A stretch of 61,498 nt of DNA from an uncultured Methanosarcinales archaeon. Lineage in GTDB: Archaea > Nanobdellota > Nanobdellia > Woesearchaeales > ARS49. The stretch is from positions 1-61,498 of the forward strand of contig CAYHXI010000001.1 in assembly GCA_964360565.1 (NCBI GenBank), in the 5' to 3' direction. Position numbers and translations under genes: made by a program. Numbering within the stretch: position 1 is the first letter of the stretch; every line of letters starts with the position of its first letter. Positions 10,539 through 46,401 of this stretch are shown piece after piece. The notes under the pieces are model-generated. The model worked only from the letters and a program-made list of their open reading frames with translations. It was not told where the DNA came from and ran no database searches.

Positions 10539-12272
10539 TTAGTCTCCCGCGTTTACTTCACTATCCCACTTATCTCTAGGATTGTCTTCTCGAGCAATTA
10601 AAAACTTATCCATAACTAAATAATCTATTCCAGTACCCATCATGCATTTGTAAGCATTTTGAGGAGTACAAACAATAGGTTCTCCTCGAATGTTGAACGA
10701 AGTATTTATCAAAATAGGAACTCCGCTTAATTTTTCAAAAGCTTTTATCACTCCATAATATCTTGAATTTTGTTCTTTTGTTATCGTCTGTAGTCTTCCT
10801 GAGCCGTCGACATGAGTTACTGAAGGAATAATCTTTCTTTTATTTTCTTTAATCGGATAAACAAAAAGCATAAATTCTTCTTCATCTTTATCAATGTCAA
10901 ACCATTCGTGAACATCTTCTGCAGTTATAACTGGAGCAAATGGCCTGAAGTGTTCTCGATGTTTGACTTTCAAATTTAGTATTTCTTTCATGTTAGGATT
11001 GCTTGCATTCGATAGGATGCTTCTAGAACCAAGCGCTCTAGGACCCCATTCCATTCTTCCTTGAAACCATCCAATAACTTTGTCTTCATAAATTAATTTT
11101 GCAGTTGTGCCAACCAGTTCTTCATCGTTTTTGAATTCTGAATAAACAATTTTGTTGTCATCAAGAAATTTCTTTATTTCTTCAGTTTTGTAACCTGGCC
11201 CTAAGTAAGCATTCTTCATAACGTAATGTCTCTTAAAATCAAATATAGAATGATAAACATAAGATGCACATCCTATGCTTGTTCCAGAATCGCTTGCCGC
11301 AGGTTGAATAAAAATATTTTTGAAAGGAGTGTTTTTTGTTATTTTTCCATTAGCCACACTATTTAATGCAACTCCTCCAGCCATGCAAAGATTATCTGAG
11401 CCAGTTAACTTGTGCAGATAGTTCAGCATGGCAAATACTGCTTCTTCTGTTACTTTCTGAAGCGAAGCAGCCATATCTTTATGCTTCTGCTCAACAGTGT
11501 CGTTTTTTCCACGAGAAGGTCCGAATTCTGAAATAAATTTTTTGCTAGGCATAGTAAGTTTATAATGATACTCAAAATAACTCATATCCAAAGCATAGCT
11601 TCCATCAGGTTTTATATCAATTACTTTTCGCAATTTTTCATAATAAATTGGTTTTCCATACGGAGCTAAACCCATAACTTTGTACTCTGAATTATTCACG
11701 CTAAATCCTAAATAAGCAGTAACTGTACTGTACAAAAGTCCTATTGAGTGAGGAAAATGAATTTCTTTCAAAATTTTGACTTCGTTGCCTTTTCCAATTC
11801 CTAAAGTTGTTGACGCCCATTCTCCAACTCCATCAATAGTACAAATTGCAGATTCTTTAAATGGAGAGACTAAAAAAGAGCTCGCCGCATGAGCTAAATG
11901 ATGCTCTATAAAAAATATTTTCTTTTTGAAACCTAATTTCTTTTTGATGATTTGAGGAATTCTTAATTTTTCAGTCAACCAGGAAGGCATGGCTTTAATG
12001 AATTGAGCATATGAAAAAGGAAATTTTTCTAAATGCTGAGACATCAAGCGGTCGAATTTAAGAATAGGCTTTTCATAAAAACCAATCTGGTCAATATTTT
12101 CTATTGTGATTTTCTCATGCTGTAAACAAAAATTTATTGAGTTAATTGGAAAACTAATATCGTGTTTTTTTCTAGTAAATCTTTCTTCTTCTGCAGCTGC
12201 AACAACAACTCCGTCTTTAATCAGAGCTGCCGCAGAGTCGTGGTAAAAACATGAAATTCCTAGTACGTACAT
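10539..12272 (-). CDS. carbamoyltransferase, NodU/CmcH family
   Basis: N-terminus YVLGISCFYHDSAAALIKDG...EERFTRKKHD and C-terminal HVDGSGRLQT...NTSFNIRGEPIV. GGAGG 13 nt upstream. Confidence 0.9.
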   Translation of the reverse strand: MYVLGISCFYHDSAAALIKDGVVVAAAEEERFTRKKHDISFPINSINFCLQHEKITIENIDQIGFYEKPILKFDRLMSQHLEKFPFSYAQFIKAMPSWLTEKLRIPQIIKKKLGFKKKIFFIEHHLAHAASSFLVSPFKESAICTIDGVGEWASTTLGIGKGNEVKILKEIHFPHSIGLLYSTVTAYLGFSVNNSEYKVMGLAPYGKPIYYEKLRKVIDIKPDGSYALDMSYFEYHYKLTMPSKKFISEFGPSRGKNDTVEQKHKDMAASLQKVTEEAVFAMLNYLHKLTGSDNLCMAGGVALNSVANGKITKNTPFKNIFIQPAASDSGTSIGCASYVYHSIFDFKRHYVMKNAYLGPGYKTEEIKKFLDDNKIVYSEFKNDEELVGTTAKLIYEDKVIGWFQGRMEWGPRALGSRSILSNASNPNMKEILNLKVKHREHFRPFAPVITAEDVHEWFDIDKDEEEFMLFVYPIKENKRKIIPSVTHVDGSGRLQTITKEQNSRYYGVIKAFEKLSGVPILINTSFNIRGEPIVCTPQNAYKCMMGTGIDYLVMDKFLIAREDNPRDKWDSEVNAGD

Positions 12273-22826: not shown

Positions 22827-23726
22827 TTACTTTTTGTTCGTTATACTGAATTCAAGTGCCTTTTCTAATTTTGTTTGTTTTATTTTAAAGACAGTATTTA
22901 GTTTTTCAATATTATAAACCCTTGACTTATTCATGTTCTTTAATTGCACAATAATAGTCTCATCAATTAGTTTAATGAGGTTTAAAACATTTAAAAATAA
23001 TAATACTGGTGCTAGCCATATGTGTATGATTGATTTTTTTTGATTTTTTACACTTATACAAATTTTCAGAAATGCATTCATAGAGATGGCTTTATTCCCT
23101 GCCAGATCAAAAGTTCCAATGATATTATTTTGTATGGCTTTATCTAGGTATTTACATACATCTTTTACAAATATGGGTTGTAGTAAGTATTTACCACTGC
23201 CAGGTATTATTAGGATAGGCAGAGTATTAATCATACTATTAATTTTTTCTAGGAATCTCTCATTATTTTTTCCAAAAATAACCGTACATCGAAATATCGT
23301 GTGCGCATATATGGTTCTTACAAATTTCTCTGCATTAATTTTACTTTTGCCATAAAAATTATCATAAGAACAATAAACGTTATCTGTACTCATAAATATG
23401 ATTTTTGGAATATTCAGTAGTTTTGCGAGATAAACCGTGTTTCTTGTTGTTTGAATATTAGTGTGTAGACACAAATTATTTATTTTTGTATCTGCCGCCA
23501 AATGCAAAATGCAATCTATTTTTTCATTTAATTCTTCTGCTAATCTTTTAATAGATTCAATGGAGTCTATATCTGTGCGTATTATTCGAAAGTTTTTCAA
23601 TTTTAATAATTTAGGCTCTATTTTAGATGTCTTTCTAACTAGTAATATAAAATTATATTTATTTGAATACATATCTACGAAACACCTGCCAACGAAACCT
23701 GTGGCGCCTGTTACGATAATTCTCAT
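22827..23726 (-). CDS. NAD(P)-dependent epimerase/dehydratase-family SDR
   Basis: N-terminal Rossmann motif VTGATGFVG and a YxxxK context (FYGKSK). 4-nt overlap with the upstream radical SAM gene. Confidence 0.8.
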   Translation of the reverse strand: MRIIVTGATGFVGRCFVDMYSNKYNFILLVRKTSKIEPKLLKLKNFRIIRTDIDSIESIKRLAEELNEKIDCILHLAADTKINNLCLHTNIQTTRNTVYLAKLLNIPKIIFMSTDNVYCSYDNFYGKSKINAEKFVRTIYAHTIFRCTVIFGKNNERFLEKINSMINTLPILIIPGSGKYLLQPIFVKDVCKYLDKAIQNNIIGTFDLAGNKAISMNAFLKICISVKNQKKSIIHIWLAPVLLFLNVLNLIKLIDETIIVQLKNMNKSRVYNIEKLNTVFKIKQTKLEKALEFSITNKK

Positions 23727-32099: not shown

Positions 32100-32972
32100 A
32101 TGAAAAAAATCTTAGTAACTGGAGGCACGGGCTTCATAGGTGAAAAAGTTGTTGAATTACTTTCTAAAAATAATCTAGTTTTCGTGCTAACCAGAAATCA
32201 TGATTTTAAAGATAGTAAAAATGTCAAATATATTTATGGCGACATTTGCAACGAACAAAAAATCAAAGAAATAGTAATTGGAAAAGACATCATAATTCAC
32301 ATGAGCGGGTCAATAAAAGGTTCTGATGAAGAAATATTCAAAACAAACATAGTTGGAACTGAGAATTTAATTAATGCTTGTAAAAATATAAACATTGAGA
32401 ATTTTGTTTTTATTAGCAGCGATGCTGTTTTTCAGAAGCACAGAAGTGGGTATTCTGAGAGTAAAGTTAAAGGAGAAGAAATAATCAAAAAAATAAAAAA
32501 TCATTGTATTTTAAGACCTGCCATTGTCTATGGTGAAGGAGATAAGATAAATCTTGGTAAAATAATTAACTTTGTTAAAAAATGGCCAGTCATAATTATT
32601 CCTGGTAATGGAAATAATAAAATGCAGCCAATATGTGTGGAGGATGTTGCAAAATATATTTCTATTGCTGCAACATCAAACATTCAAGGAGTTTATACTC
32701 TCGCTGGCTCAGATATTTTGACTTTCAATACTTTTATGGATGAAGCATGTTTAGTGTTGAATAAAAAATTACTAAAAATACATCTTCCTTTATTTTTCAT
32801 AATTCCTTTTGTTTGGCTTGTTGAAAAACTATTCCCTAATTTAGGCGTGAGTATTTCTCAAGTAAAAAATTTGAATTCTGATAGAGTTTATGACATTTCC
32901 GAAACAATAAAAACATTCAAACATGAGCCAATAAAAATAAAAGAAGGATTAAAGAGAACCATAGTACATTAA
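32100..32972 (+). CDS. NAD(P)-dependent epimerase/dehydratase-family SDR
   Basis: VTGGTGFIG Rossmann motif and YSESK. Alignable by eye with 22827-23726. Confidence 0.8.
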   Translation: MKKILVTGGTGFIGEKVVELLSKNNLVFVLTRNHDFKDSKNVKYIYGDICNEQKIKEIVIGKDIIIHMSGSIKGSDEEIFKTNIVGTENLINACKNINIENFVFISSDAVFQKHRSGYSESKVKGEEIIKKIKNHCILRPAIVYGEGDKINLGKIINFVKKWPVIIIPGNGNNKMQPICVEDVAKYISIAATSNIQGVYTLAGSDILTFNTFMDEACLVLNKKLLKIHLPLFFIIPFVWLVEKLFPNLGVSISQVKNLNSDRVYDISETIKTFKHEPIKIKEGLKRTIVH

Positions 32973-34511: not shown

Positions 34512-35618
34512 TCATTTTAATAAATTCTTAGATTCTCGAATAACCTCTTCTTCTGTTATGTAATTTATGCAATTGTCATTATATTCTCGACATAATTCTC
34601 TGCTCGCAAAGATTTTATTTAAATTATATTCTCTACATTTTCCACGACAAACTGTGTCTTTTTGAAGAGATATTTGATTTTCATTAATCGGTCCCCAGAA
34701 ATTTAATATTGTTGGTCCATAAATTATTACTGCTGGAGTTTTTGTTGCAGATGAAATGTGGACTGTTGAAGTATCTATTGTTATTAACAAGTCACTTTCA
34801 GAAATTAAGGCAGCTAATTTGTTAAATGTATCTGGAACAATAATTTCTGATTTATTCTTCATTTTGCCAACTATATTTTTAACGTAATCTATTCCTTCTT
34901 CAGGAGAAATAAATAAAACCACATTATTTTTACAGAGTTCTTCTGCAATACTCACCCATTTATCTGTCTGCCACAAATGATTCTTATTTTCTGAATATGT
35001 GTGAATAAGAATAACTTTCCTCCTTTTTTCATTCAGTCTGATTATTTCTTTGGCCCACAGTTCATCTTTTTTAGAGAAAAAAACTTCAGGTCTTTTATTT
35101 TTAATATATTTAACAAATGGTTTTATTATCTCTAAATAATTATCAATCATGTGATTTGAAGGATAATTGATTTCTAAACTCGGCAAAAAACCTCTGAAAC
35201 CGCCTCTTTTAAAGTAAAGTCGGTATTTACTTCCCACTAAAAATGAAAAAAACCATCGTCTAAAATTGCTCAGCGTTATTTGTAAATCAAAACACACTTC
35301 AATATGCAGATTATTTATTTCTTGCACTAAATTAAAATAATCAGGAAGTCTTCCAGAATACAGTATCAATTTATCAACATACTTACATTCTTTTAAAACT
35401 TCATAACCTTTTGAAGAGACAACTACAAAAATATTACAAGTAGAAAAAGTACTTTTTAACTCTCTCAACATGGAAGTCATCATTATTGTATCTCCATAAC
35501 CTTGAGGATTTATCACCAGGATATTTTTCTCAGAGAGATCTATGTTTTTCAGTCTATTTTTTTTAATGAAAAAATAGAAATCGTTCACCGCCCCTATTAC
35601 TAATATTTTTAATTTCAT
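34512..35618 (-). CDS. GT9-family (heptosyltransferase-like) glycosyltransferase
   Basis: GYGDTIMMTSMLRELK near the N-terminus and IDTSTVHISSATKTPAVIIYGPT near the C-terminus. Confidence 0.75.
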   Translation of the reverse strand: MKLKILVIGAVNDFYFFIKKNRLKNIDLSEKNILVINPQGYGDTIMMTSMLRELKSTFSTCNIFVVVSSKGYEVLKECKYVDKLILYSGRLPDYFNLVQEINNLHIEVCFDLQITLSNFRRWFFSFLVGSKYRLYFKRGGFRGFLPSLEINYPSNHMIDNYLEIIKPFVKYIKNKRPEVFFSKKDELWAKEIIRLNEKRRKVILIHTYSENKNHLWQTDKWVSIAEELCKNNVVLFISPEEGIDYVKNIVGKMKNKSEIIVPDTFNKLAALISESDLLITIDTSTVHISSATKTPAVIIYGPTILNFWGPINENQISLQKDTVCRGKCREYNLNKIFASRELCREYNDNCINYITEEEVIRESKNLLK

Positions 35619-36453: not shown

Positions 36454-36470
36454 ATATGCTTTGTAGCAAA

Positions 36471-37568
36471 ATGAACTTATCTATCTTGGTGCGGAACGAT
36501 AATAGTATAACTGGAGTCTCAAGATGTGAAACTGAACTTGTTAAGAGAATTAAGAATAAATTTAAAGTAAATGTATTCACATCAAAATTTTATCCTCTGC
36601 CACACAGAGTAATAAGATATTTTAATTTTATTTTTAAACTAATGCTGCCAAGAAAAATCAGAAAAGATAAATCCAGAATCCTACACCTTCTCGATCAACA
36701 GTTAGCAATCATTTTGAACTTTTTATTTTTAAAAGAAACTGTAATTGTAACAGTTTATGATATGTACTCGTTTAGTTATGAATATAAAAGAACTTATGAT
36801 TTTGTTAAGAGAATTCAATATTTCTTAGTTAATTTAGGTTTAAGGAAAGTAGACTATTTTATAGCCATATCTGAGGTGGTGAAAAAACAAATAATACATC
36901 ATCTTAATGTTCCTGAAGATAGAATATCTCTGATGCGTTTAGGAATTGATCATCAAAAGTTCAAAAGAATATCTGTAAATAAAAGAGAATTTCTTAAAAA
37001 ATATGATATTCCAACTGATAAAAAGATAGTCTTATATGTTGGTGCCGAAAAACCACAAAAGAATTTTGAAGCGCTCATTAGAGCATTCTATGAAATTAAA
37101 AAAGAGTGTAATGATTCGATACTTATTAAAATAGGTTCTGCTCAAGATAATGTGATGAGAGATTTTCATATTGGCTTGATAAAAAAATTAAACTTAGGAC
37201 AAGATATATTTTTTACCGGATTTGTTCAAGAGTACGATTTGCCTGCATTTTATAATATTGCTGATGTTTTCGTTATGCCTTCAATAGATGAAGCTGGCTT
37301 TGATTTGCCTGTTGTCGAAGCCATGGCATGCGGTTGTCCGATAATATTCTGTGATGAATCACTAAATGAGACTGTTGGAAATGCAGGAATTCTTGTTGAA
37401 AATAGTCCTGAAAAAATAGCCGATGCAATTTTTAGAGTAACAAACGACAAAAAATTAAAAGCAGAGTTAGAAAAGAAAAGTTTTAAACAGTCTAAATTGT
37501 TCAATTGGGATGATTCCGCACGACAACTTTTTAAAATATATGAACAAATAGAAAAAAACATCAATTAA
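36471..37568 (+). CDS. GT4-family glycosyltransferase
   Basis: C-terminal EAGFDLPVVEAMACGCPIIF. Start set to ATG 36471, 22 nt from the TATA core at 36441-36448; the track start 36456 would leave no room for a promoter. Confidence 0.8.
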   Translation: MNLSILVRNDNSITGVSRCETELVKRIKNKFKVNVFTSKFYPLPHRVIRYFNFIFKLMLPRKIRKDKSRILHLLDQQLAIILNFLFLKETVIVTVYDMYSFSYEYKRTYDFVKRIQYFLVNLGLRKVDYFIAISEVVKKQIIHHLNVPEDRISLMRLGIDHQKFKRISVNKREFLKKYDIPTDKKIVLYVGAEKPQKNFEALIRAFYEIKKECNDSILIKIGSAQDNVMRDFHIGLIKKLNLGQDIFFTGFVQEYDLPAFYNIADVFVMPSIDEAGFDLPVVEAMACGCPIIFCDESLNETVGNAGILVENSPEKIADAIFRVTNDKKLKAELEKKSFKQSKLFNWDDSARQLFKIYEQIEKNIN

Positions 37569-38284
37569 TTTTTAACTCCAACATACAATCCTTTCTCTTT
37601 CACAAGTCCATTTTTAACAAATGTTGTTTTAAGTCCAACAGTTCTCATAAGTTTTAAAGTTTTGTCTACGTTGAACAGTCCTAAAGTGTGTTTATCAACC
37701 AGATATTTTACTGGTTTGTTTTTTTCAGCCAACAAATAATGCATATCTATTAAAGAATTATTTCCAAATATTTTAGAATCTCTTAGCCTTACAATATCTA
37801 CCTCATTCCCTCGGTAGATTGTTGAATGAAATCCAGTTTTGTATGTTTTTTTATTGAACCAAGGTTCTATTATTATCACGCCTCCTTTTTTAAGGTGTTC
37901 AGAAAATTTTTTTATTGTTTTTCTTAAATTCTCATATGTTTTAACATAACCTATTGACGCGAATAAACACAATATCACATCAAATTTTTTATTGAGTTTC
38001 ATATTTATCATATTTGCCTGTACAAAATCTATGCCTTTAATGTTCTTCTTTGCAACTTTAAGAACGCCTCTATTAATATCTACTCCTGTGCAGGAAAAAC
38101 CTTTTTTAAAATATTTCAAATATCTTCCTGTTCCACAAGCAACTTCCAAAAGTTCTTTTCCAGATGATTTTTTATATTTTGAAATTAGTTTTTTAATTTT
38201 ATTTGCTTCTTGCTTATAGTTTTTTGAAGAATAAATTAAGTCATAATGTTTTCCAAAATTCTTGAAAAGTAATTGATCTGCCAC
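37565..38284 (-). CDS. TylM1/DesVI-like sugar N,N-dimethyltransferase (SAM-dependent)
   Basis: Collinear with my recollection of TylM1: YDLIY...LLEVACGTGRYL...DVILCLFASIGY...GGVIIIEPWF...MHYLL. GTG start; TATA-like box 38305-38313. Confidence 0.65.
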   Translation of the reverse strand: MADQLLFKNFGKHYDLIYSSKNYKQEANKIKKLISKYKKSSGKELLEVACGTGRYLKYFKKGFSCTGVDINRGVLKVAKKNIKGIDFVQANMINMKLNKKFDVILCLFASIGYVKTYENLRKTIKKFSEHLKKGGVIIIEPWFNKKTYKTGFHSTIYRGNEVDIVRLRDSKIFGNNSLIDMHYLLAEKNKPVKYLVDKHTLGLFNVDKTLKLMRTVGLKTTFVKNGLVKEKGLYVGVKN

Positions 38285-38315
38285 GAATATTGTATACTCT
38301 AGAATTATATAAATC

Positions 38316-38363
38316 TTGCTGAACTTTTGCAGTTCATATATGAAATAGTCAAAAGTTCAGCAA
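38316..38363. repeat. perfect 14-bp hairpin H5 with palindromic loop
   Basis: TTGCTGAACTTTTG (38316-38329) pairs with CAAAAGTTCAGCAA (38350-38363). The loop contains the palindrome TTCATATATGAA. Confidence 0.75.
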
Positions 38364-38422
38364 ACTATCCTTTTGCGTCAATAAGCCAACACTGGAAACA
38401 CAAAAGTCTAGTCTTGCTAAAA

Positions 38423-38430
38423 TTTATAAA
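38423..38430 (+). promoter_or_regulatory. TATA box for gmd
   Basis: TTTATAAA 36 nt upstream of ATG 38467. Confidence 0.45.
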
Positions 38431-38466
38431 GATGTGTGAAGAAATAACAGATTAGAGGCAATATAG

Positions 38467-39459
38467 ATGACTAAACGCGCACTTATAACAGGAATAACTG
38501 GACAAGATGGATCATATTTGGCCGAACTTTTGCTTTCTAAAGGTTATGAAGTTTATGGAATTGTAAGACGAAGCAGCACACTTAATAGAAAAAATATCGA
38601 TCATTTGCAGAATGAAAGTTCTGTCATGAATTCAAGATTTAAGTTATTATATGGAGATCTTACTGATGCAAATTCAATATCCAAAATTTTGCATGATGTG
38701 AAACCTGATGAAGTTTATAATTTAGGTGCGCAAAGTCATGTTAGAGTTAGTTTTGATGTGCCAGTTTATACTGCGGATACTATCGCATTAGGCACTCTGA
38801 GGCTTCTTGAAGCGATTAGACAGGAAAATACAAAAATAAAGTTTTATCAGGCTTCGAGCAGCGAGATGTATGGTAAAGTGCTCGAAATACCCCAAAAAGA
38901 GAACACTCCTTTTAATCCTAGAAGTCCTTATGCTTGTGCAAAGGTATTTGCGCATCAAATTACTAAATTATATAGAGATTCTTATAATATGTTTGCATGC
39001 GGTGGAATATTATTTAATCATGAATCTCCTAGAAGAGGAGACACTTTTGTTACAAAAAAAATTGTTAAAGCAGTTGTGCAAATAAAGCTAGGAAAACAAA
39101 AAGAGCTGTACTTGGGAAACCTAGAATCAAAAAGAGACTGGGGTTATGCTCCTGAATATGTTGAAGCAATGTGGCGTATACTTCAGCAGGAAAAACCAGA
39201 TGATTTCGTTATTGCAACTGGAGAAACACACACAGTTAAAGAATTTATCGAAGAAGCATTTAACTATGTTAATCTCAACTGGAAAGATTACGTTAAAATA
39301 GATGCTAAGTATTATCGTGCATCTGAAGTGGATTTTTTACAAGGAGACTATGCTAAAGCTAAAGAAAAACTTGGTTGGGAGCCTAAAGTGAAGTTTAAGC
39401 AGTTAGTTAAGTTGATGATTGATGCAGAGTTTGAAGAAGAAAAAAGAGCACGAATGTGA
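38467..39459 (+). CDS. gmd: GDP-mannose 4,6-dehydratase
   Basis: [42 protein letters not shown] and [10 protein letters not shown]. Confidence 0.95.
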
Positions 39460-39464
39460 TTAAT

Positions 39465-39504
39465 AGTGAACGACACAAATAATAGGACACTAGTGTCGTT
39501 CACT
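39465..39504. repeat. perfect 12-bp hairpin T1 downstream of gmd
   Basis: AGTGAACGACAC (39465-39476) pairs with GTGTCGTTCACT (39493-39504); 16-nt loop. Confidence 0.75.
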
Positions 39505-39506
39505 AA

Positions 39507-39554
39507 ATAGTTGGCGACTCAAAAGAGTGTTCAATAACTTTCTTCGCCAACTAT
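39507..39554. repeat. perfect 11-bp hairpin T2
   Basis: ATAGTTGGCGA (39507-39517) pairs with TCGCCAACTAT (39544-39554); 26-nt loop. Confidence 0.75.
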
Positions 39555-39607
39555 AAATACAAATTAATTAGCTATTTCTGCAAATAATATTTTAGGTACT
39601 TTCAGAG

Positions 39608-39812
39608 TACGTGGAAAGCTCAGTCTTTATAATATCAAGAAATTTTTCCGCCATGCAAGATTAGTTATTTGCTGATTCGCTGGTTTTATTCGTTTCCATC
39701 TCCCTCGGACCCGAAGGGAGATGGAAACGATTATCAACAAAAAAAGGGAAAAACAAACAGCGTGGCGGAAAAATTTACCAAAGTGAAATACTTCTCTTAG
39801 CTTTCCACGTAT
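39608..39812. ncRNA. triple-nested inverted repeat: candidate structured RNA, bidirectional terminator or MITE-like element
   Basis: IR-A: TACGTGGAAAGCT 39608-39620 pairs with 39800-39812 (13 bp, perfect). IR-B: AAATTTTTCCGCCATGC 39640-39656 pairs with 39760-39776 (17 bp with one T/G pair). IR-C: CGTTTCCATCTCCCT 39691-39705 pairs with AGGGAGATGGAAACG 39715-39729 (15 bp, perfect). Confidence 0.35.
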
Positions 39813-40933
39813 CTTTCAGAAACTTCTGGTTTTTTTTGTATTTTTCTAAGTATTGATGCGATATATTTTAATTGATCATCAGTTAATTTCGGACTTGAAG
39901 GTAAATAAAGACCTTCTTTTTCAAGCATTTCACTGACTGGAAATTTATCCTGTTGAGAAATGAATTTTTTCAAAGGAGGTTGTTTATGCATTCCTGTGAA
40001 AAAGAATCGCGAATCAATTCCATTTTCAAATAATTGTTTTTTTACTTCATCTCTTTCAACACCGAATTCTTTTTTTATTAATATTCCATACATCCAGTAA
40101 ACATTGCGTACATCTTTACTTTCAAACGGTGTTCGAATCCCAGGAATGTCTTTAAGTAATTCATTATATTTGTATGATATTTCTCTTTTTCGACGTATTA
40201 TTTCTTCTATTTTCTCTAATTGAGCGAGTCCTATGGCTGCTTGCAAATTAGTAAAAGGATACTTAAAACCTATCTCTTCATGAACATACCTTCTTTCTTT
40301 ATCAAAACAAAAGTTAGCCAACCAACGCGCTCTTTCTGCTAACTTTTCATTATCTGTGATGACTATTCCGCCTTCACCTGTTGTAACGATTTTGTTAGAA
40401 TAGAAACTGAATGCGCTCATATGTCCGAAGCTACCGACCTTTTTTCCTTTGTATAATGCTCCGTGAGCTTCTGCTGCATCTTCTATAATATACAAATTAT
40501 GTTTTTTAGCAATTCTTTGTATTTTATCCATATCGCAGGGATGACCATAAATGTGTACTGGCATAATTGCTTTAGTTCGTTCAGTAATTTTTTCTTCTAT
40601 TTTCTCAGGATCTATATTAAACGTCTGAGGTTCAGCATCAACAAATACTGGCTTTGCACCTGTGTAAATTACGCTTAAAGGGCAGGCCATCATAGTAAAA
40701 TTAGGAATTATTACTTCATCACCCTCTTTAATTCCTAGTGTTGAGACTGCTAGGTGTAACGCTGCAGTTCCACTAGGTACACAGATGCCATATTTAACAC
40801 CGCAATAAGAAGCAAATTCTTTTTCAAAAAGCTTGTTGTATTTGCCTCCTGAAGAAATCCAATTTAAATCTAAGCAATCATTCACATATTTCTTTTCGTT
40901 TCCATTTAGAGGAGGTTCATATACTGGAATCAT
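39797..40933 (-). CDS. DegT/DnrJ/EryC1/StrS-family PLP-dependent sugar aminotransferase
   Basis: Family layout with SFYSNKIVTTGEGG, which holds the PLP lysine context. Confidence 0.9.
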   Translation of the reverse strand: MIPVYEPPLNGNEKKYVNDCLDLNWISSGGKYNKLFEKEFASYCGVKYGICVPSGTAALHLAVSTLGIKEGDEVIIPNFTMMACPLSVIYTGAKPVFVDAEPQTFNIDPEKIEEKITERTKAIMPVHIYGHPCDMDKIQRIAKKHNLYIIEDAAEAHGALYKGKKVGSFGHMSAFSFYSNKIVTTGEGGIVITDNEKLAERARWLANFCFDKERRYVHEEIGFKYPFTNLQAAIGLAQLEKIEEIIRRKREISYKYNELLKDIPGIRTPFESKDVRNVYWMYGILIKKEFGVERDEVKKQLFENGIDSRFFFTGMHKQPPLKKFISQQDKFPVSEMLEKEGLYLPSSPKLTDDQLKYIASILRKIQKKPEVSERYVES

Positions 40934-40937
40934 GCCA

Positions 40938-41312
40938 TCATACTCTCACAGTATCATTTTCATAACCATTATTACTCCTTGATTCGGAGTTCATGTCTAA
41001 AAATACAGTGTCTTCCAAGAATTCCATTCTATGAGCTACACCTGCAGGAATAAACACCAAGTCTCCACTTGAAAGAATGTTTTCTGTTAATTTTTTTGGC
41101 TCTTTAATTTGCCAAGTAATTAGTTTTACTTTTCCAGATATTATATAATTGTACTGTGTTTGTTTAATGTGATAATGATTTCCTCTAACAGTTCCTTTTT
41201 TGGAATTTATTATTCCAGTGTGCAATATTGCAACATCATCAAGTATGTCTGATATTGCTCCTCGTTCATCACTGAAAGCAGGAGTTACTTTTTTTATTTT
41301 AATTTGTGTCAT
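40938..41312 (-). CDS. WxcM/FdtA-like cupin (NDP-4-keto-6-deoxyhexose 3,4-ketoisomerase-like)
   Basis: Small cupin with SDERGAISDI and VRGNHYH. Start set to ATG 41312, with GGAGG (41318-41322 on the complement) 5 nt upstream. Confidence 0.65.
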   Translation of the reverse strand: MTQIKIKKVTPAFSDERGAISDILDDVAILHTGIINSKKGTVRGNHYHIKQTQYNYIISGKVKLITWQIKEPKKLTENILSSGDLVFIPAGVAHRMEFLEDTVFLDMNSESRSNNGYENDTVRV

Positions 41313-41332
41313 ATTGGCCTCCAAATGCACTG

Positions 41333-42595
41333 TTAAACTATTTTTGGTTCAGGTATTGGTATAATAAATTTTCCTCCTTGTTTAACATATTCTTGATTAT
41401 TTTTTATAATTTCATCAGCAAAATTCCATGCCAGTAGTAGTGCATAATCTGGTTTGTCTTTCAACAATCGATTGTCTGAAACAACAGGGATGTGCATTCC
41501 AGGAGAATATGTTCCTATTTTAAGGTTAGATTTTTCTGTTAAGTAATCTAAATATTGAGTTCCTATTTTACAATAATTTAATAATGTGTTTCCTTTTGCA
41601 GGAGCGCTAACTCCCACTATTTTTTTCCCTTGTTTTTTTAAATCAACTAAAAGAGATATTAAATCATGTCTGTGCTGACTGACTTTTTTTGAAAAATTTC
41701 TTAAAGACTCTAAATTGTAAATTCCTGTTTCTTGTTCAAGAGTTAGTAATTTGTTAACATTATCTGAAACTTGGTAAACTCCTTTTCTGCCAACAAATAC
41801 TCTTATAGAACCACCGTGAATTGTTACACGTTCAACATCGAATAGTTCCATTTCGTGTTTGTTGAAAAATTTAACTAACGGTTTTATAGATAAATACCCT
41901 AGATGTTCATGATATATTGTATCGTATTCTAGATGATTAAACAGGTCTACAAAGTATGGTGCTTCAAACACAAATACTCCTCGCTCAGATAATTGCATAT
42001 CTATGGCTTTCATGAAATCATTGAGATTACCTATGTGAGCAAACACATTTGTTGCAGTAATTATATCTGCTTTACCTTTGCTTTTAACTATTTGAGGTAC
42101 AACTTCACATCCGAAAAATTCAGGAATTGTTTCTATTCCATTAGCATTGGCTATTTCTGCAATATTTTTTGCAGGATCAACTCCCAGAACTCGCATACCT
42201 TGAATTTTAAATCCTGATAACAAAACTCCAACATTACTTCCTATATCTATGACAAACGAACTCTTAGGCAAATTAAATTTTTTACATACCTCCTCTGCCA
42301 TTTTATAAAAGTGTTCTTTTCCTCGCTTTGTTATGTTTGCTTCGTAGGGATAATTTATTTGGTATAAAATAACTGGAGAAACAACATGTCTGAGCTGTAT
42401 AAATCCACACTCATCGCACAGCAGTACTTTAAGTGGATAGTGTGCTTCACCAGTATGTAGTTCTTCTTCTTTTAAAAATCTGTCTGAAGGAGGTGAGTGT
42501 TCAAGATCCAAAAAGTCAGTGAGCTTTTGACTATCACACATTCTACAATGTAGAATTGTTTGTATTTCCCCGTTTTTATTACTAACTATAGTCAT
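41333..42595 (-). CDS. NDP-hexose C-methyltransferase-like (TylC3/NovU type) with N-terminal zinc ribbon
   Basis: CRMCDS...CDECGFIQL zinc ribbon, SAM motif VIDIGSNVG, and a C-terminal C-methyltransferase-type domain. Confidence 0.7.
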   Translation of the reverse strand: MTIVSNKNGEIQTILHCRMCDSQKLTDFLDLEHSPPSDRFLKEEELHTGEAHYPLKVLLCDECGFIQLRHVVSPVILYQINYPYEANITKRGKEHFYKMAEEVCKKFNLPKSSFVIDIGSNVGVLLSGFKIQGMRVLGVDPAKNIAEIANANGIETIPEFFGCEVVPQIVKSKGKADIITATNVFAHIGNLNDFMKAIDMQLSERGVFVFEAPYFVDLFNHLEYDTIYHEHLGYLSIKPLVKFFNKHEMELFDVERVTIHGGSIRVFVGRKGVYQVSDNVNKLLTLEQETGIYNLESLRNFSKKVSQHRHDLISLLVDLKKQGKKIVGVSAPAKGNTLLNYCKIGTQYLDYLTEKSNLKIGTYSPGMHIPVVSDNRLLKDKPDYALLLAWNFADEIIKNNQEYVKQGGKFIIPIPEPKIV

Positions 42596-42678
42596 TCTTT
42601 GATATTTTGAAAACTGGACGATTTATAAAGCTTACGAACATGAAAAACATAACTGTTTAAAGAACCAAATGGATTTCG

Positions 42679-43650
42679 ATGATGATGAATGAACTGAATA
42701 AACTATTAGTTATCCGCATAGATCAATTAGGGGATGTTCTGCTTACTTTTGCAGTAATAAATAAAATTAAAAAGAAAAACGATGCACTTAAAATAGATAT
42801 TTTAGTTAAAGAAGAATTTAGAGAATTTTTAATCTCTAAAAAATTTTTTAACAAAGTGATTGGATTTCAAAACACTTTTTTTGGCAAAATCATTTGCTTG
42901 ATAAGATTGTCTTTTTTGAAGTATGACTTAACAGTTGACTGTGTAACAAGAAGTGATTTCTTTTCTTCTCTTTGTTTGTTATTTTCAAATGCAAATAAGA
43001 AAAGAGGATTTGCAGTTGGATTGAGAAAGTATTTAATCAATGATGTTGTTAAACCTCCAACAGAACTTTTACACGAGACTGAATTCGTGAAAAAATTAAT
43101 TTATGATTATGAAATTGAAACTGTTGATGTGTATGCTGAACGAGAACTAAAAAGAACTGAGTTAATTATTGCAATTAGTCCTTTTGCAAGTCATTTTGTG
43201 AAAGAGTGGCCTTTAGAGAAATGGGACAAATTTATTGAAAAATTAAAATTGATAAAAAATTGTGAAGTGCATATTTTTGGTTTAAAGAAGCACCAGAAAT
43301 TACTTGAAAAATTATCTGCAGATGGAGTGGTTATTCATTACAATTTAAGTTTAACAGCCTTCTATAATATTCTAAAAAAAACCTCATTGCACATAACTGT
43401 TAACAATGGTGCAATGCATCTGGCTGCTATTGCGGGAGTGCCTCAGATAATTCTTAATGGACCTTCAAGTTTAACACGTTGGAAACCTCTTCAAAAGAAT
43501 CCAACTGTGCTTTCTTCTAATCTAGATTGCACCCAAAGCGAAGAAAAGTTCGGTTCTTTTGAGCGTTGTGTTGAAAATAATGGTGATTGTATGAATGCAA
43601 TAACTGTTGAAGATGTTTTAAAGGCAGTTAAAAAGAAAATTAAAGCTTAA
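42679..43650 (+). CDS. GT9-family (heptosyltransferase-like) glycosyltransferase
   Basis: IDQLGDVLLTFAVI and NNGAMHLAAIAGVPQIILNGPS. Confidence 0.7.
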   Translation: MMMNELNKLLVIRIDQLGDVLLTFAVINKIKKKNDALKIDILVKEEFREFLISKKFFNKVIGFQNTFFGKIICLIRLSFLKYDLTVDCVTRSDFFSSLCLLFSNANKKRGFAVGLRKYLINDVVKPPTELLHETEFVKKLIYDYEIETVDVYAERELKRTELIIAISPFASHFVKEWPLEKWDKFIEKLKLIKNCEVHIFGLKKHQKLLEKLSADGVVIHYNLSLTAFYNILKKTSLHITVNNGAMHLAAIAGVPQIILNGPSSLTRWKPLQKNPTVLSSNLDCTQSEEKFGSFERCVENNGDCMNAITVEDVLKAVKKKIKA

Positions 43651-43675
43651 CAATCAAGCATTGTTTATTTGATAC

Positions 43676-44356
43676 TTAAATAATACTTTCAGGTTTATCT
43701 TTGAAAAATTCGTCTATTGCGGTTTTAACTCCTTTTGCAGTAGGGTAATCATGCGATAAAATAAATCCGCCTCGATTCATTTTTGAATAGATGAAATTAA
43801 GGGAATTTACTGTACTTTCGTGTGTGTCAACATCTAAATTGACAAAACAAAATCTTTTATCAGTCATGTTTTCAGCATCCTTGGGAAAATAACCTTTGTA
43901 AACTGAAACATTGACTTCTTTAGAGAATAATTCTTTAACTGCACTATAATCTGAATTAAAATCGCCATTTACAAATGTGTTGTCGCTTTCTTTGTCAACT
44001 TCTTTTGCGTCTTTTAGTCCTTCAAATGTATCAAATAAATACAAACTCTTAGCTCCTTTGACAGCGCATATTAATTTTGCGCTACCTCCTTTGTAAACAC
44101 CAATCTCCAACATATCTCCAGCTACTTTTGTTGAAGATTTCGCTAAAGAGAATAAAACAAATGCTTGGTGTGCAGACATTAACAGTTCTGTTTCTTTTTG
44201 AACTTGTTTAAAGATATTGAAGAAATCCGAATCAAATTGAACTATTTCTTTATTCTTTCGATTAAGATATCCTAGAGTTATGCGTTTAATGAATGATTTT
44301 GGTAAGGAAAATATTTTGTTTTCTAATACTCTGTAAAAAAGTTCTTTGAGTTTCAT
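43676..44356 (-). CDS. TylF/MycF-like (macrocin O-methyltransferase family) methyltransferase
   Basis: GDMLEIGVYKGGSAKLI, LYLFDTFEGL and VNLDVDTHEST. Confidence 0.65.
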   Translation of the reverse strand: MKLKELFYRVLENKIFSLPKSFIKRITLGYLNRKNKEIVQFDSDFFNIFKQVQKETELLMSAHQAFVLFSLAKSSTKVAGDMLEIGVYKGGSAKLICAVKGAKSLYLFDTFEGLKDAKEVDKESDNTFVNGDFNSDYSAVKELFSKEVNVSVYKGYFPKDAENMTDKRFCFVNLDVDTHESTVNSLNFIYSKMNRGGFILSHDYPTAKGVKTAIDEFFKDKPESII

Positions 44357-44358
44357 TA

Positions 44359-46401
44359 TTATTTCTCCATTAAGTTTTTGTAAACCTTCAAAGTCTCTTC
44401 AGCAGTATTCTTCCAACTGAACTTCTTTGCTTGCTCAAATCCTTTATTTATTAATTCTTCTCTCAATCTTTTATCTGTGAGAATTTTTTCCATTGCATTT
44501 TTTATTTCTTCGATTGATAAGGGATTTACCAATAATGTGGCATCTCCTGCAACTTCAGGCATAGAGGATGTATTTGCAGTGACAACTGGACATCCGCAAG
44601 CCATTGCTTCTAAAATTGGCAGTCCAAAGCCTTCGTAAAGTGACGCTAAAACGAATAAATCTGCAAGATTATATAAATAAGGCAAGTCTTCTTCATCAAT
44701 GTAGTCTGTGAAAATAATTTTATCTTGAAGATCGAGTTGCTTTATCTTTTCAAATATTGGACTGTAAAGCCAGCCTTTCTTTCCAACTATGACAAATTTA
44801 TGTGGAAAATTATTTTTCTTCAGATGGTGAAACGCTTCAATTGTTCTTTCCAAATTTTTTCTAGGCGAAAGTACACCAGTGAAAAGCAAGAATTTTTCTG
44901 GAAGAGCATACTTAGTTCTAATAGTATTCAATTTGGCAACATTTGTTATTCTTTTGTATTTTTCACCTACGCCTAAGTAAATTACTTTAATTTTCTCGTC
45001 CAATATATTGAAATACTGCATTATGTCTTTTTTTGTCGATTCTGAATCTGCGATTATTATGTCTGCATTGTTGACTGACTTTTTAAGAAAAAATTTAAAA
45101 TATAATTTATTTTCCATTGTAAAGCTTTCAGGATACTTAAAAAAAGATAAGTCATGAATTGTTATTGTGTATTTGCATTTTTTACTAAATGGCGCTAAAA
45201 AAGATGGACCGTGAAAAACATCTACATTGTTGTACTGTATTTCCTTTGCAAGCCAGAATTGCTCCCAGAATATTCTCATAAATCTTATTTTGGTTGGAAT
45301 TGAAGTTATGTAGTTTACAAAATTGTACTTTTTTTCAAGAGCGATTAGTGGCTCATGGTTGTTGAAGAATAAAACATACTTGTTCTTTTCATCTATTAAA
45401 GAGAGGTTTTTAACTAATTCTAGCGTGTATCTTTCTATTCCACTCATACTTCTTTGTAAATATCTGGCATTGATTCCTATTGTAGAATAATACGGCACAA
45501 ATTCAAAATTATGGTCTGATTGGTTGGGAAAATTTCTGCTAACTAACGCCTTGAGAAATCTTTTAACTATTGTGTTTTCTCTGCGTATCAAATTCAAAGT
45601 GATGAATGCTGGGCTGTAAAAAAACATATATGTGTGGAACAAAATTCTTTCAAAAAATGGTAAATTTCTATTGACAAATCTCAAACGATTTTTTGTAAAC
45701 AAATAAACAGATAATGGACTTTTATATCCTCCTGTGGAAGAAGAAACTTTGTGCCAAACTTTTGCTTTGTGAGAATAAAATATTTTTTTGCCTTGCTTTT
45801 GAATTTTATAGCAGAACTCAACGTCTTCACAATATGCAAAATAATAGGGGTCGAAAATATCTGAAGAAATATATTTCAAATTAATGAACATGGCGCATCC
45901 AGAAGCAAAAGATATTTCTCCATCAGAGTCATATTGCTTATTGTCTTCTTCTCCATATCCTATTGGAACACTCTTCGACTGCCAAGTTTTCAAAATAAAT
46001 CCTGCTGATTCTAAATTGTTTTTATTATGATAATTATATATTTTTGGGCTTACAATGGCAATATCTTCTCTTGAATTTGCAGTACTTACTAATTCTTTGA
46101 GAAAATTTGTATCTACAGTTGTATCGTTGTTTAATAGAAGAACATATTTTGAACCATTTTTTATTGCGGCTCTGACACCAATGTTGTTTCCCTCTGCAAA
46201 TCCATAATTTTTTGGATTTTTTATAAATATAACTTCAGGAAATAATTTAAGAAGATACTCTGCAGAATCATCACTGCTACCATTATCAACAACTATAAGT
46301 TCATAATTGTCATAATCAACATTTTTTATAGAGTTCAAACACTCTTCAGTATCTTTCTTTCCATTCCAGTTAAGGATTATTATGCTTATTTTTGGGGTCA
46401 T
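44359..46401 (-). CDS. bifunctional GT2 (N-terminal) + GT4 (C-terminal) glycosyltransferase fusion
   Basis: N-terminus ISIIILNWNG..VVDNGSSD..LLNNDT; C-terminus EGFGLPILEAMACGCPVVTA. Confidence 0.85.
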   Translation of the reverse strand: MTPKISIIILNWNGKKDTEECLNSIKNVDYDNYELIVVDNGSSDDSAEYLLKLFPEVIFIKNPKNYGFAEGNNIGVRAAIKNGSKYVLLLNNDTTVDTNFLKELVSTANSREDIAIVSPKIYNYHNKNNLESAGFILKTWQSKSVPIGYGEEDNKQYDSDGEISFASGCAMFINLKYISSDIFDPYYFAYCEDVEFCYKIQKQGKKIFYSHKAKVWHKVSSSTGGYKSPLSVYLFTKNRLRFVNRNLPFFERILFHTYMFFYSPAFITLNLIRRENTIVKRFLKALVSRNFPNQSDHNFEFVPYYSTIGINARYLQRSMSGIERYTLELVKNLSLIDEKNKYVLFFNNHEPLIALEKKYNFVNYITSIPTKIRFMRIFWEQFWLAKEIQYNNVDVFHGPSFLAPFSKKCKYTITIHDLSFFKYPESFTMENKLYFKFFLKKSVNNADIIIADSESTKKDIMQYFNILDEKIKVIYLGVGEKYKRITNVAKLNTIRTKYALPEKFLLFTGVLSPRKNLERTIEAFHHLKKNNFPHKFVIVGKKGWLYSPIFEKIKQLDLQDKIIFTDYIDEEDLPYLYNLADLFVLASLYEGFGLPILEAMACGCPVVTANTSSMPEVAGDATLLVNPLSIEEIKNAMEKILTDKRLREELINKGFEQAKKFSWKNTAEETLKVYKNLMEK

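Follow-up and report, generated by a model that had tools for sequence, protein, structure and literature searches.

A candidate GDP-based route to a branched, methylated amino-6-deoxyhexose, encoded in the surface-glycan island of an archaeon of the DPANN group

Enzymes encoded at the locus

The stretch of DNA analysed here, hereafter the window, comprises 61,498 nucleotides of an uncultured archaeon placed among the Woesearchaeales (contig CAYHXI010000001.1 of assembly GCA_964360565.1) and carries six genes for enzymes of nucleotide-sugar tailoring, namely a 4,6-dehydratase of guanosine diphosphate (GDP)-mannose (Gmd), a C-methyltransferase (C-MT), a small cupin, an aminotransferase, an N-methyltransferase (N-MT) and a TylF-like O-methyltransferase. 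An initial annotation had assigned these six genes, and the assignments hold after profile and PDB searches, with all six open reading frames recovered at exactly the coordinates given below. We think it probable, with some reserve, that the region encodes a GDP-based route to a branched, methylated amino-6-deoxyhexose for an archaeal surface glycan. At the heart of the locus are three minus-strand genes separated by intergenic gaps of only 2 and 4 bp, and because of this spacing the operon previously proposed at 39797-42595 is real, with transcription running from the C-MT through the cupin to the aminotransferase.

The first gene of the operon (41333-42595, minus strand) encodes a nucleoside diphosphate (NDP)-hexose C-MT of the TylC3/MtmC/TcaB9 family (PF08421, 73 bits; PF13489; PF08484, 192 bits), in which the N-terminal four-cysteine zinc domain, the class I S-adenosylmethionine (SAM) domain and the C-terminal Methyltransf_14 domain are all present. 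Its PDB matches are all full length and include MtmC (4RV9; 337 bits), KijD1 (268 bits) and TcaB9 (242 bits). The zinc-site residues C17, C20, C60 and C63 and the SAM motif are invariant in the family, as are N183/H187 and the Y228-x-E230-H231 motif, and in alignments all of these coincide with catalytic motifs of MtmC and KijD1. By homology, the C-MT would methylate the carbon alpha to a 4-keto group, most likely C3.

The last gene of the operon (39797-40933, minus strand) encodes a sugar aminotransferase of the DegT family, dependent on pyridoxal phosphate (PLP) and resembling GDP-perosamine synthase (PF01041, 411 bits). Its best PDB relative is the GDP-perosamine synthase (Per) of Caulobacter (3BN1/3DR4; 337 bits, 46% identity over 361 columns), whereas QdtB, which acts on a thymidine diphosphate (dTDP)-linked 3-keto sugar, reaches 247 bits. 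The best NCBIfam model is that of the LegC family, at 354 bits and under its cutoff of 420; LegC is specific for GDP-sugars in Campylobacter. The PLP-binding lysine is kept (FSFYSNK, aligned with FSFFGNK of Per) and is not replaced by the His of ColD-type dehydratases. These features point to an enzyme that probably acts at C4, in the manner of perosamine synthesis, and not at C3 as in the mycaminose and desosamine pathways.

Between these two genes lies that of a small NDP-hexulose cupin of 130 residues with the FdtA/QdtA fold (40938-41330, minus strand), which passes the FdtA profile only marginally (PF05523; 24.4 bits, cutoff 23). Its AlphaFold (AF2) model has a predicted local distance difference test score (pLDDT) of 93.8, and the top Foldseek matches of the model are QdtA, FdtD, HCAN_0198 and FdtA (template modelling (TM) scores of 0.73-0.79), with the epimerases RmlC, EvaD and ChmJ ranked only slightly behind the ketoisomerases. 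A profile of the cupin compared with the PDB returned QdtA (5e-7) and FdtA (1.4e-5), while the metal-cupin motifs of OxdC score higher, and sequence identity with FdtA/QdtA amounts to 17-24%. A plain FdtA identity was rejected, the profile evidence being marginal and the fold search unable to separate ketoisomerase from epimerase. Assignment as an RmlC-type 3,5-epimerase fails both on score (20.8-23 bits on TIGR01221 against 155.75) and on length (130 residues against approximately 180-200). Invariant positions in the cupin family are D21, R23, R49, H52, H100, R118, Y123, E124, D126 and R129, of which the C-terminal set from R118 to R129 is specific to this family.

The metal-ligand positions typical of cupins are conserved in this family: by sequence profile, residues H52, H54, Q59 and H100 align with the Mn ligands His95, His97, Glu101 and His140 of OxdC, and position 59 is Gln or His throughout the family. 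No metal requirement is reported for the known FdtA/QdtA ketoisomerases.

Upstream of the dehydratase gene and divergent from it lies the gene of a DesVI/TylM1-like amino-sugar N-MT (37565-38284, minus strand). The product aligns with DesVI end to end (3BXO; E 1e-36; residues 13-237 against 11-237 of 239), scoring 130 bits, followed by TylM1 at 98 bits and CalS10, which acts on a 4-amino sugar, at 65 bits; the next unrelated methyltransferase stands at 59 bits. Since Pfam and NCBIfam matched only generic class I methyltransferase models, the earlier call of an N,N-dimethyltransferase was at first doubted, and this doubt was reversed by the PDB search, which supplied the confirmation that generic profile libraries had not.

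The dehydratase itself (38467-39459, plus strand) is a Gmd by the TIGR01472 equivalog model (508.7 bits against a cutoff of 415) and by PF16363 (473 bits), whereas the RmlB model reaches only 125 bits against a cutoff of 365. As a member of this family, it would supply GDP-4-keto-6-deoxy-D-mannose.

Distribution of the module and the nucleotide scaffold

Homologues of the C-MT number more than 7,900 at E<=1e-30, the named ones belonging to DPANN archaea. Gene neighbourhoods were analysed at 79 loci from named genomes, together with an IQ-TREE maximum-likelihood tree of the 79 C-MTs, in which the window C-MT falls in a clade of 22 rows (support 100/98). A true Gmd lies within 6 kb at 8 loci of this clade, and RmlB or a cytidine diphosphate (CDP)-glucose dehydratase is linked to the C-MT at no locus of the clade, Gmd being the only linked 4,6-dehydratase in it. 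The C-MTs that are linked to RmlB or to the CDP enzyme lie mostly in other clades, and where more distant C-MTs without a cupin have neighbouring short-chain dehydrogenases/reductases (SDRs), these are genuine 4,6-dehydratases of dTDP-glucose or CDP-glucose. Orthologues of Gmd (47-64% identity) are found 3-265 bp from the C-MT at L023, L032, L033 and L034, and directly abut it (3-12 bp) at the last three of these. Each of the 14 clade genomes that lack an adjacent Gmd encodes one elsewhere (12 over the cutoff and 2 near it), as against 5 of 14 control genomes.

The genome from which the window derives (1.46 Mb in 156 contigs, 89.6% complete) was searched with profiles for a dTDP pathway, as the initial annotation had proposed, and RmlA, RmlB and RmlC were not found over cutoff in this assembly (best scores of 206 against 365 for RmlB, 105 against 361 for RmlA and 23 against 156 for RmlC). 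The absence of RmlA and RmlB from the window was borne out as well, neither a nucleotidyltransferase (NTase) gene nor RmlB being found there. A second woesearchaeal genome (G052) is alike in carrying the module and Gmd, with no RmlB, RmlA or RmlC over cutoff. Together, the Per-like aminotransferase, the Gmd-linked clade of the C-MT and the lack of RmlA, RmlB and RmlC give a GDP scaffold good, if indirect, support. The suggestion that the pathway runs on GDP has thus gained backing from comparative genomics and from a GDP-perosamine synthase as the closest characterised relative of the aminotransferase, while the accompanying description of such a scaffold as unusual was overstated, given the precedents of the established GDP-perosamine and GDP-mycosamine and the proposed GDP-virenose, and the thousands of C-MT homologues.

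Other nucleotide-sugar genes are scattered over the assembly. Its three NTases are a GlmU-type enzyme (contig C54), a small one (C78) and a partly masked HddC/ManC-like one (C12). A reductase of the RmlD family on C90 (4493-5323) exceeds the TIGR01214 cutoff (239 against 224 bits), and was dismissed as the sign of a hidden dTDP-rhamnose operon, its neighbours being unrelated. The best RmlB-like SDR, at 206 bits, lies on C81 within a cluster (C81:1707-6487) of a PseB-like dehydratase, two SDRs, a NeuB-like synthase and a probable cytidylyltransferase, which looks like a nonulosonic-acid cluster of the pseudaminic or legionaminic type; no aminotransferase is visible on this short contig. Two further DegT aminotransferases are encoded on C39 and C98.

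Within the 79 loci, the cupin adjoins the C-MT at 32, of which 20 also have a Per-like aminotransferase and 12 do not, and six loci have the aminotransferase without the cupin. Where both cupin and aminotransferase occur, homologues of the latter lie 48-435 bp from the C-MT or cupin at 14 of the 20 loci. A reductase of the adh_short family takes the place of the aminotransferase at L020, L032 and L033. A TylM1-like methyltransferase recurs 0.8-3.4 kb from the C-MT at eight loci, each of them with an aminotransferase. In several instances the C-MT and the cupin are fused into one protein of approximately 545-640 residues, with the C-MT N-terminal and the cupin C-terminal (L014:5821-7551, L023:9980-11893, P0040, P0056, P0090, P0102 and P0114), and such fusions are 'Rosetta-stone' evidence for consecutive action of the two enzymes. 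Because the cupin travels with the C-MT, to which it is sometimes fused, rather than with the aminotransferase, it is best seen as the partner of the C-MT, and an epimerase-like role is favoured over 3,4-ketoisomerisation.

A mobile, conserved module is made up of the C-MT, the cupin and the aminotransferase, joined at some loci by the N-MT, and has a patchy occurrence in DPANN archaea, in bacteria of the candidate phyla radiation (CPR) and in many other bacteria. Only 5 of 40 genomes from the same family or order (G001-G040) encode a C-MT homologue, at 40-43% identity, whereas identities of 59-70% link the window C-MT to proteins from different lineages, CPR bacteria and Proteobacteria among them; the module is therefore patchy among relatives and has probably been exchanged laterally.

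The cultured Rhizobium redzepovicii 18T has a locus (L022; NZ_JAILYH010000007.1:81830-103047) with a C-MT, a cupin, a Per-like aminotransferase, a TylM1-like N-MT and a family 4 glycosyltransferase (GT4), and its Gmd is encoded away from this locus, elsewhere in the genome. This locus is one of the eight with a TylM1-like methyltransferase.

Predicted pathway, its alternatives and the island setting

In the pathway that we favour, the SAM-dependent C-MT of the TylC3/MtmC type would methylate the Gmd product alpha to its ketone, most likely at C3. The cupin would then re-set the stereochemistry beside the ketone by epimerisation at C5 or at C3/C5, by analogy with the pairs TylC3-TylK and EvaC-EvaD; this is the weakest step of the scheme. 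The perosamine-synthase-like enzyme would aminate C4, and the DesVI/TylM1-like methyltransferase would add one or two methyl groups to the new amine. The end product would be a GDP-4-(methyl/dimethyl)amino-4,6-dideoxy-3-C-methyl-hexose similar to sibirosamine or kansosamine, which a neighbouring glycosyltransferase would transfer and which the TylF-like enzyme may afterwards O-methylate. The initial annotation had implied instead the logic of mycaminose and desosamine, in which 3,4-ketoisomerisation is followed by transamination at C3. With a Per-like aminotransferase, and with a cupin tied to the C-MT, this order of events is less likely; moreover, methylation at C3 removes the C3 proton that an isomerase would need, which makes C3-methylation before C4 transamination the more likely sequence.

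A version of the older logic can be kept on the GDP scaffold by taking the cupin as a GDP-4-keto-6-deoxymannose 3,4-ketoisomerase, and we regard this as unlikely, though deserving of attention. Amination would in that case fall on C3 to give a sugar of the mycosamine type, the C-MT would act at C5 as NovU does, or alpha to a 3-keto group, and the DesVI-like enzyme would dimethylate the 3-amine. The best structural and sequence matches of the cupin among sugar enzymes, QdtA, FdtD, FdtA and HCAN_0198, share its size (about 135 residues), its conserved R-G-N-H-x-H-K resembles the catalytic His pair of FdtA/QdtA, and 3-amino sugars are the substrates of DesVI and TylM1, to which the N-MT is most similar. 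In addition, the 3,4-isomerisation step on GDP in mycosamine synthesis has no assigned enzyme (PMC4700089). Weighing on the other side is the co-variation and fusion of the cupin with the C-MT, along with the absence of an aminotransferase from 12 of 32 cupin loci and of a cupin from six aminotransferase loci. The known ketoisomerases are obligately paired with a 3-aminotransferase, whereas this cupin has a C-MT as its neighbour or fusion partner and is accompanied by a Per-like aminotransferase, the closest relative of which is a C4 enzyme. Methylation at C3, the usual reaction of the C-MT family, would also take away the very proton on which the isomerase depends.

Two further readings detach the operon from Gmd. 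By one, which appears very unlikely, the operon acts on a dTDP-sugar or another non-GDP sugar, the dehydratase and nucleotidyltransferase being encoded in the missing tenth or so of the genome or having escaped recognition, and gmd is a mere neighbour. In its favour, the solved C-MT, ketoisomerase and N-MT relatives all use dTDP-sugars, the assembly is incomplete and divided among 156 contigs, and it contains the RmlD-family reductase on C90, the GlmU-type NTase on C54 and the ambiguous SDR on C81. RmlB also occurs in 13 of 14 module-bearing bacterial genomes, a frequency that leaves its presence non-discriminating as a test. Yet none of RmlA, RmlB and RmlC passes its cutoff, the RmlD-like gene stands alone with neighbours unrelated to it, and the SDR on C81 belongs to the PseB/NeuB-type cluster. 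Nor is any RmlB link found in the clade of the window C-MT, as it is in other clades, the aminotransferase is Per/LegC-like, and the woesearchaeal genome G052 has the module and Gmd with no RmlB. To the other reading we give slightly less credence again: Gmd would lead to a simple GDP-6-deoxyhexose of the rhamnose, fucose or 6-deoxytalose type by way of SDRs of the island (22827-23726 and 32100-32972), and the operon would modify a uridine diphosphate (UDP)-4-keto-6-deoxy-N-acetylhexosamine made by the PseB-like dehydratase of C81. In its favour are a gmd that is convergent to the operon and not co-transcribed with it, the two SDR genes, the presence of that PseB-like 4,6-dehydratase (315 bits, under the cutoff of 408) and the 287 bits of the aminotransferase against PseC. 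In the related loci, however, Gmd directly abuts the C-MT, a PseB-type gene does not recur beside the module, and the DegT aminotransferases on C39 and C98 could serve the nonulosonic-acid pathway. For this last reason, and on account of the synteny of the aminotransferase with the C-MT and cupin in 20 loci, its identification as the PseC or LegC of the C81 cluster was rejected.

Several observations weigh against the favoured GDP-based, C4-aminating pathway. Methylation at C5, as by NovU, is also within the repertoire of this C-MT family, and the nucleotide specificity of the C-MT clade is not readable from sequence. The HxH motif (RGNHYH) and the size of the cupin fit 3,4-ketoisomerases better than RmlC-type epimerases. 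Per-like aminotransferases include the C3-specific mycosamine enzymes, so that regiochemistry at C4 is not proven. The gmd gene of the window stands in its own transcription unit, and its product may feed other GDP-6-deoxyhexose routes through the two island SDRs. The supply of GDP-mannose is itself unexplained, because neither a phosphomannomutase nor a clear guanylyltransferase was found: a phosphohexomutase of the phosphoglucomutase/phosphomannomutase family (PF02878), present in 14 of 14 control genomes, was not detected in the 89.6%-complete assembly, and the sole candidate there for a mannose-1-phosphate guanylyltransferase, which was not found in unambiguous form, is the HddC-like NTase on C12, the N-terminal part of which (C12:5707-5934) falls under a masked stretch of 100 Ns and is not fully readable. 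The hexose-1-phosphate for nucleotide sugars could come from a mutase on a missing contig or from dependence on a host.

A more far-reaching proposal concerning the cupin is offered tentatively, as an improbable but consequential one. The protein may be the first member of a new GDP-sugar enzyme family, being either the missing GDP-4-keto-6-deoxymannose 3,4-ketoisomerase or a possibly metal-dependent epimerase that is the obligate, at times fused, partner of GDP-specific C-MTs; acting alongside the aminotransferase and the N-MT, it would yield a GDP-linked N,N-dimethylamino, C-methyl-branched 6-deoxyhexose on the surfaces of DPANN and CPR organisms. We know of no description of such a sugar nucleotide.

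All six genes belong to an island of glycan genes that spans about 45 kb (from roughly 9.5 to 54 kb of the window) and holds an AglH-like initiating transferase, a carbamoyltransferase, Wzx-like flippases, a Wzy_C protein, a PMT_2 (GT-C) protein, many genes of the GT2, GT4 and GT9 families and several radical-SAM enzymes. Adjoining the N-MT gene is a GT4 glycosyltransferase (36456-37568, plus strand; PF00534, 102 bits; PF13439), a type that recurs beside bacterial modules too (cluster 5), and a GT9, heptosyltransferase-like glycosyltransferase (42679-43650, plus strand; PF01075, 63 bits) sits between two operons. The second of these operons, on the minus strand, contains a SPASM radical-SAM enzyme, a Gfo/Idh/MocA oxidoreductase and a GT2-GT4 fusion (44359-46401; PF00535 at residues 6-144 and PF13439/PF00534 at residues 320-655), a candidate transferase, by its domains, for the island glycan. 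It ends with the TylF/NovP-family O-methyltransferase gene (43676-44356, minus strand), which begins 2 bp past the stop of the fusion gene. The family placement made in the initial annotation stands (PF05711, 69 bits against a cutoff of 23; distant PDB matches to NovP at 35 bits and MycF at 25 bits), whereas the link that it drew to this sugar is weak, since the gene belongs to a different transcription unit.

Elsewhere in the island, a NodU/CmcH-type carbamoyltransferase (10539-12272) adjoins the AglH-like initiating transferase (GT4 family, PF00953; 9520-10530), a pair from which O-carbamoylation of a sugar of this glycan may be suspected. Two GT9 genes resembling lipopolysaccharide heptosyltransferases, that at 42679-43650 and a second at 34512-35618, occur in this one archaeal island, and elsewhere in the genome are found an SDR resembling ADP-glyceromanno-heptose 6-epimerase (C123:1-881; 249 bits against 275) and the HddC-like NTase (C12:5224-5934); together they give a hint that the glycan of this DPANN archaeon may contain heptose. 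The archaeal context of the host is supported by the NOG1 and Ski2/DSHCT helicase genes of the window, by the archaeal GlmU-type NTase on C54 and by the nearest relatives of the C-MT, which are Woesearchaeota.

Relation to known deoxysugar pathways

Deoxysugars with C-methyl branches or N,N-dimethylamino groups are textbook products of the dTDP pathways of antibiotic producers. Biochemical demonstration of such chemistry is so far known only for the dTDP-sugars of these organisms, while the gene set described here is common among uncultured microbes. The literature yielded no GDP-dependent sugar C-MT that has been characterised, no partner cupin and no GDP-sugar N,N-dimethyltransferase, and nothing usable was found there on GDP-perosamine with a C-MT, on the GDP-recognition residues of Per or on 4,6-dideoxy-3-C-methyl sugars. 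Should the GDP-based pathway prove true, C-methyl and N-methylamino sugar chemistry would extend to a second nucleotide scaffold, the first GDP-specific C-MT, cupin and N-MT would become available for glycoengineering, and ultra-small archaea and CPR bacteria would be seen to swap such modules in diversifying their surface glycans. The same four-gene set in the cultured Rhizobium redzepovicii 18T provides a tractable system and makes the prediction directly testable.

A close parallel for the GDP scaffold is the GDP-perosamine pathway, composed of Gmd and Per/RfbE in Caulobacter, Vibrio cholerae O1 and E. coli O157. The two share the first enzyme and a PLP-dependent aminotransferase, 46% identical, for a GDP-4-keto-6-deoxy sugar. 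Here, however, the operon places the C-MT and cupin ahead of the aminotransferase, and the usual N-acyltransferase gives way to a DesVI-like N-MT, from which a C-branched, N-methylated product is predicted. The GDP-mycosamine pathway of polyene producers, with the Gmd NysDIII/AmphDIII and the aminotransferase NysDII/AmphDII, likewise combines a GDP scaffold and Gmd with a Per-like aminotransferase. In that pathway the 3,4-isomerisation is described as presumably spontaneous (PMC4700089). Mycosamine differs, moreover, in being a 3-amino, unbranched sugar, whereas a cupin and a C-MT are present here.

The tailoring steps find their counterparts in the dTDP-linked C-methyl pathways of actinomycetes, such as TylC3-TylK-TylC2 for mycarose, EvaC-EvaD-EvaE for epivancosamine, MtmC, and KijD1/TcaB9. 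Homology of the C-MTs extends over their full length and includes the zinc site and the Y-x-E-H motif, and in both settings the C-MT is followed by a cupin and then by processing of the 4-keto group. The actinomycete systems work on dTDP, use an RmlC-type epimerase of about 200 residues and belong to secondary-metabolite clusters, whereas here the scaffold appears to be GDP, the cupin is a 130-residue protein of the FdtA fold and the setting is a DPANN surface-glycan island. The dTDP-4-keto-6-deoxyglucose 3,4-ketoisomerases FdtA, QdtA and Tyl1a resemble this cupin in fold, length, HxH motif and an N-terminal D-x-R-G, but its sequence similarity to them is weak, it is coupled to a C-MT, and its C-terminal set of R118, Y123, E124, D126 and R129 is particular to its own family. 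Similarly, the N-MT is related over its full length to DesVI and TylM1, yet those characterised enzymes use dTDP-3-amino sugars and a GDP-4-amino sugar is predicted here.

Another close relative of the proposed scheme is GDP-virenose synthesis in Coxiella burnetii, for which Gmd, a TylCIII-like C-MT and an epimerase/reductase have been proposed in silico only (PMC3539893; PMC3204966). In that proposal, too, a TylC3 homologue methylates C3 of a 4-keto sugar derived from GDP-mannose, and loci such as L033 and L034, which possess Gmd, the C-MT and the cupin and lack an aminotransferase, fit the same logic. The Coxiella route ends in reduction, whereas for the locus described here transamination of the 4-keto group, followed by N-methylation, is predicted.

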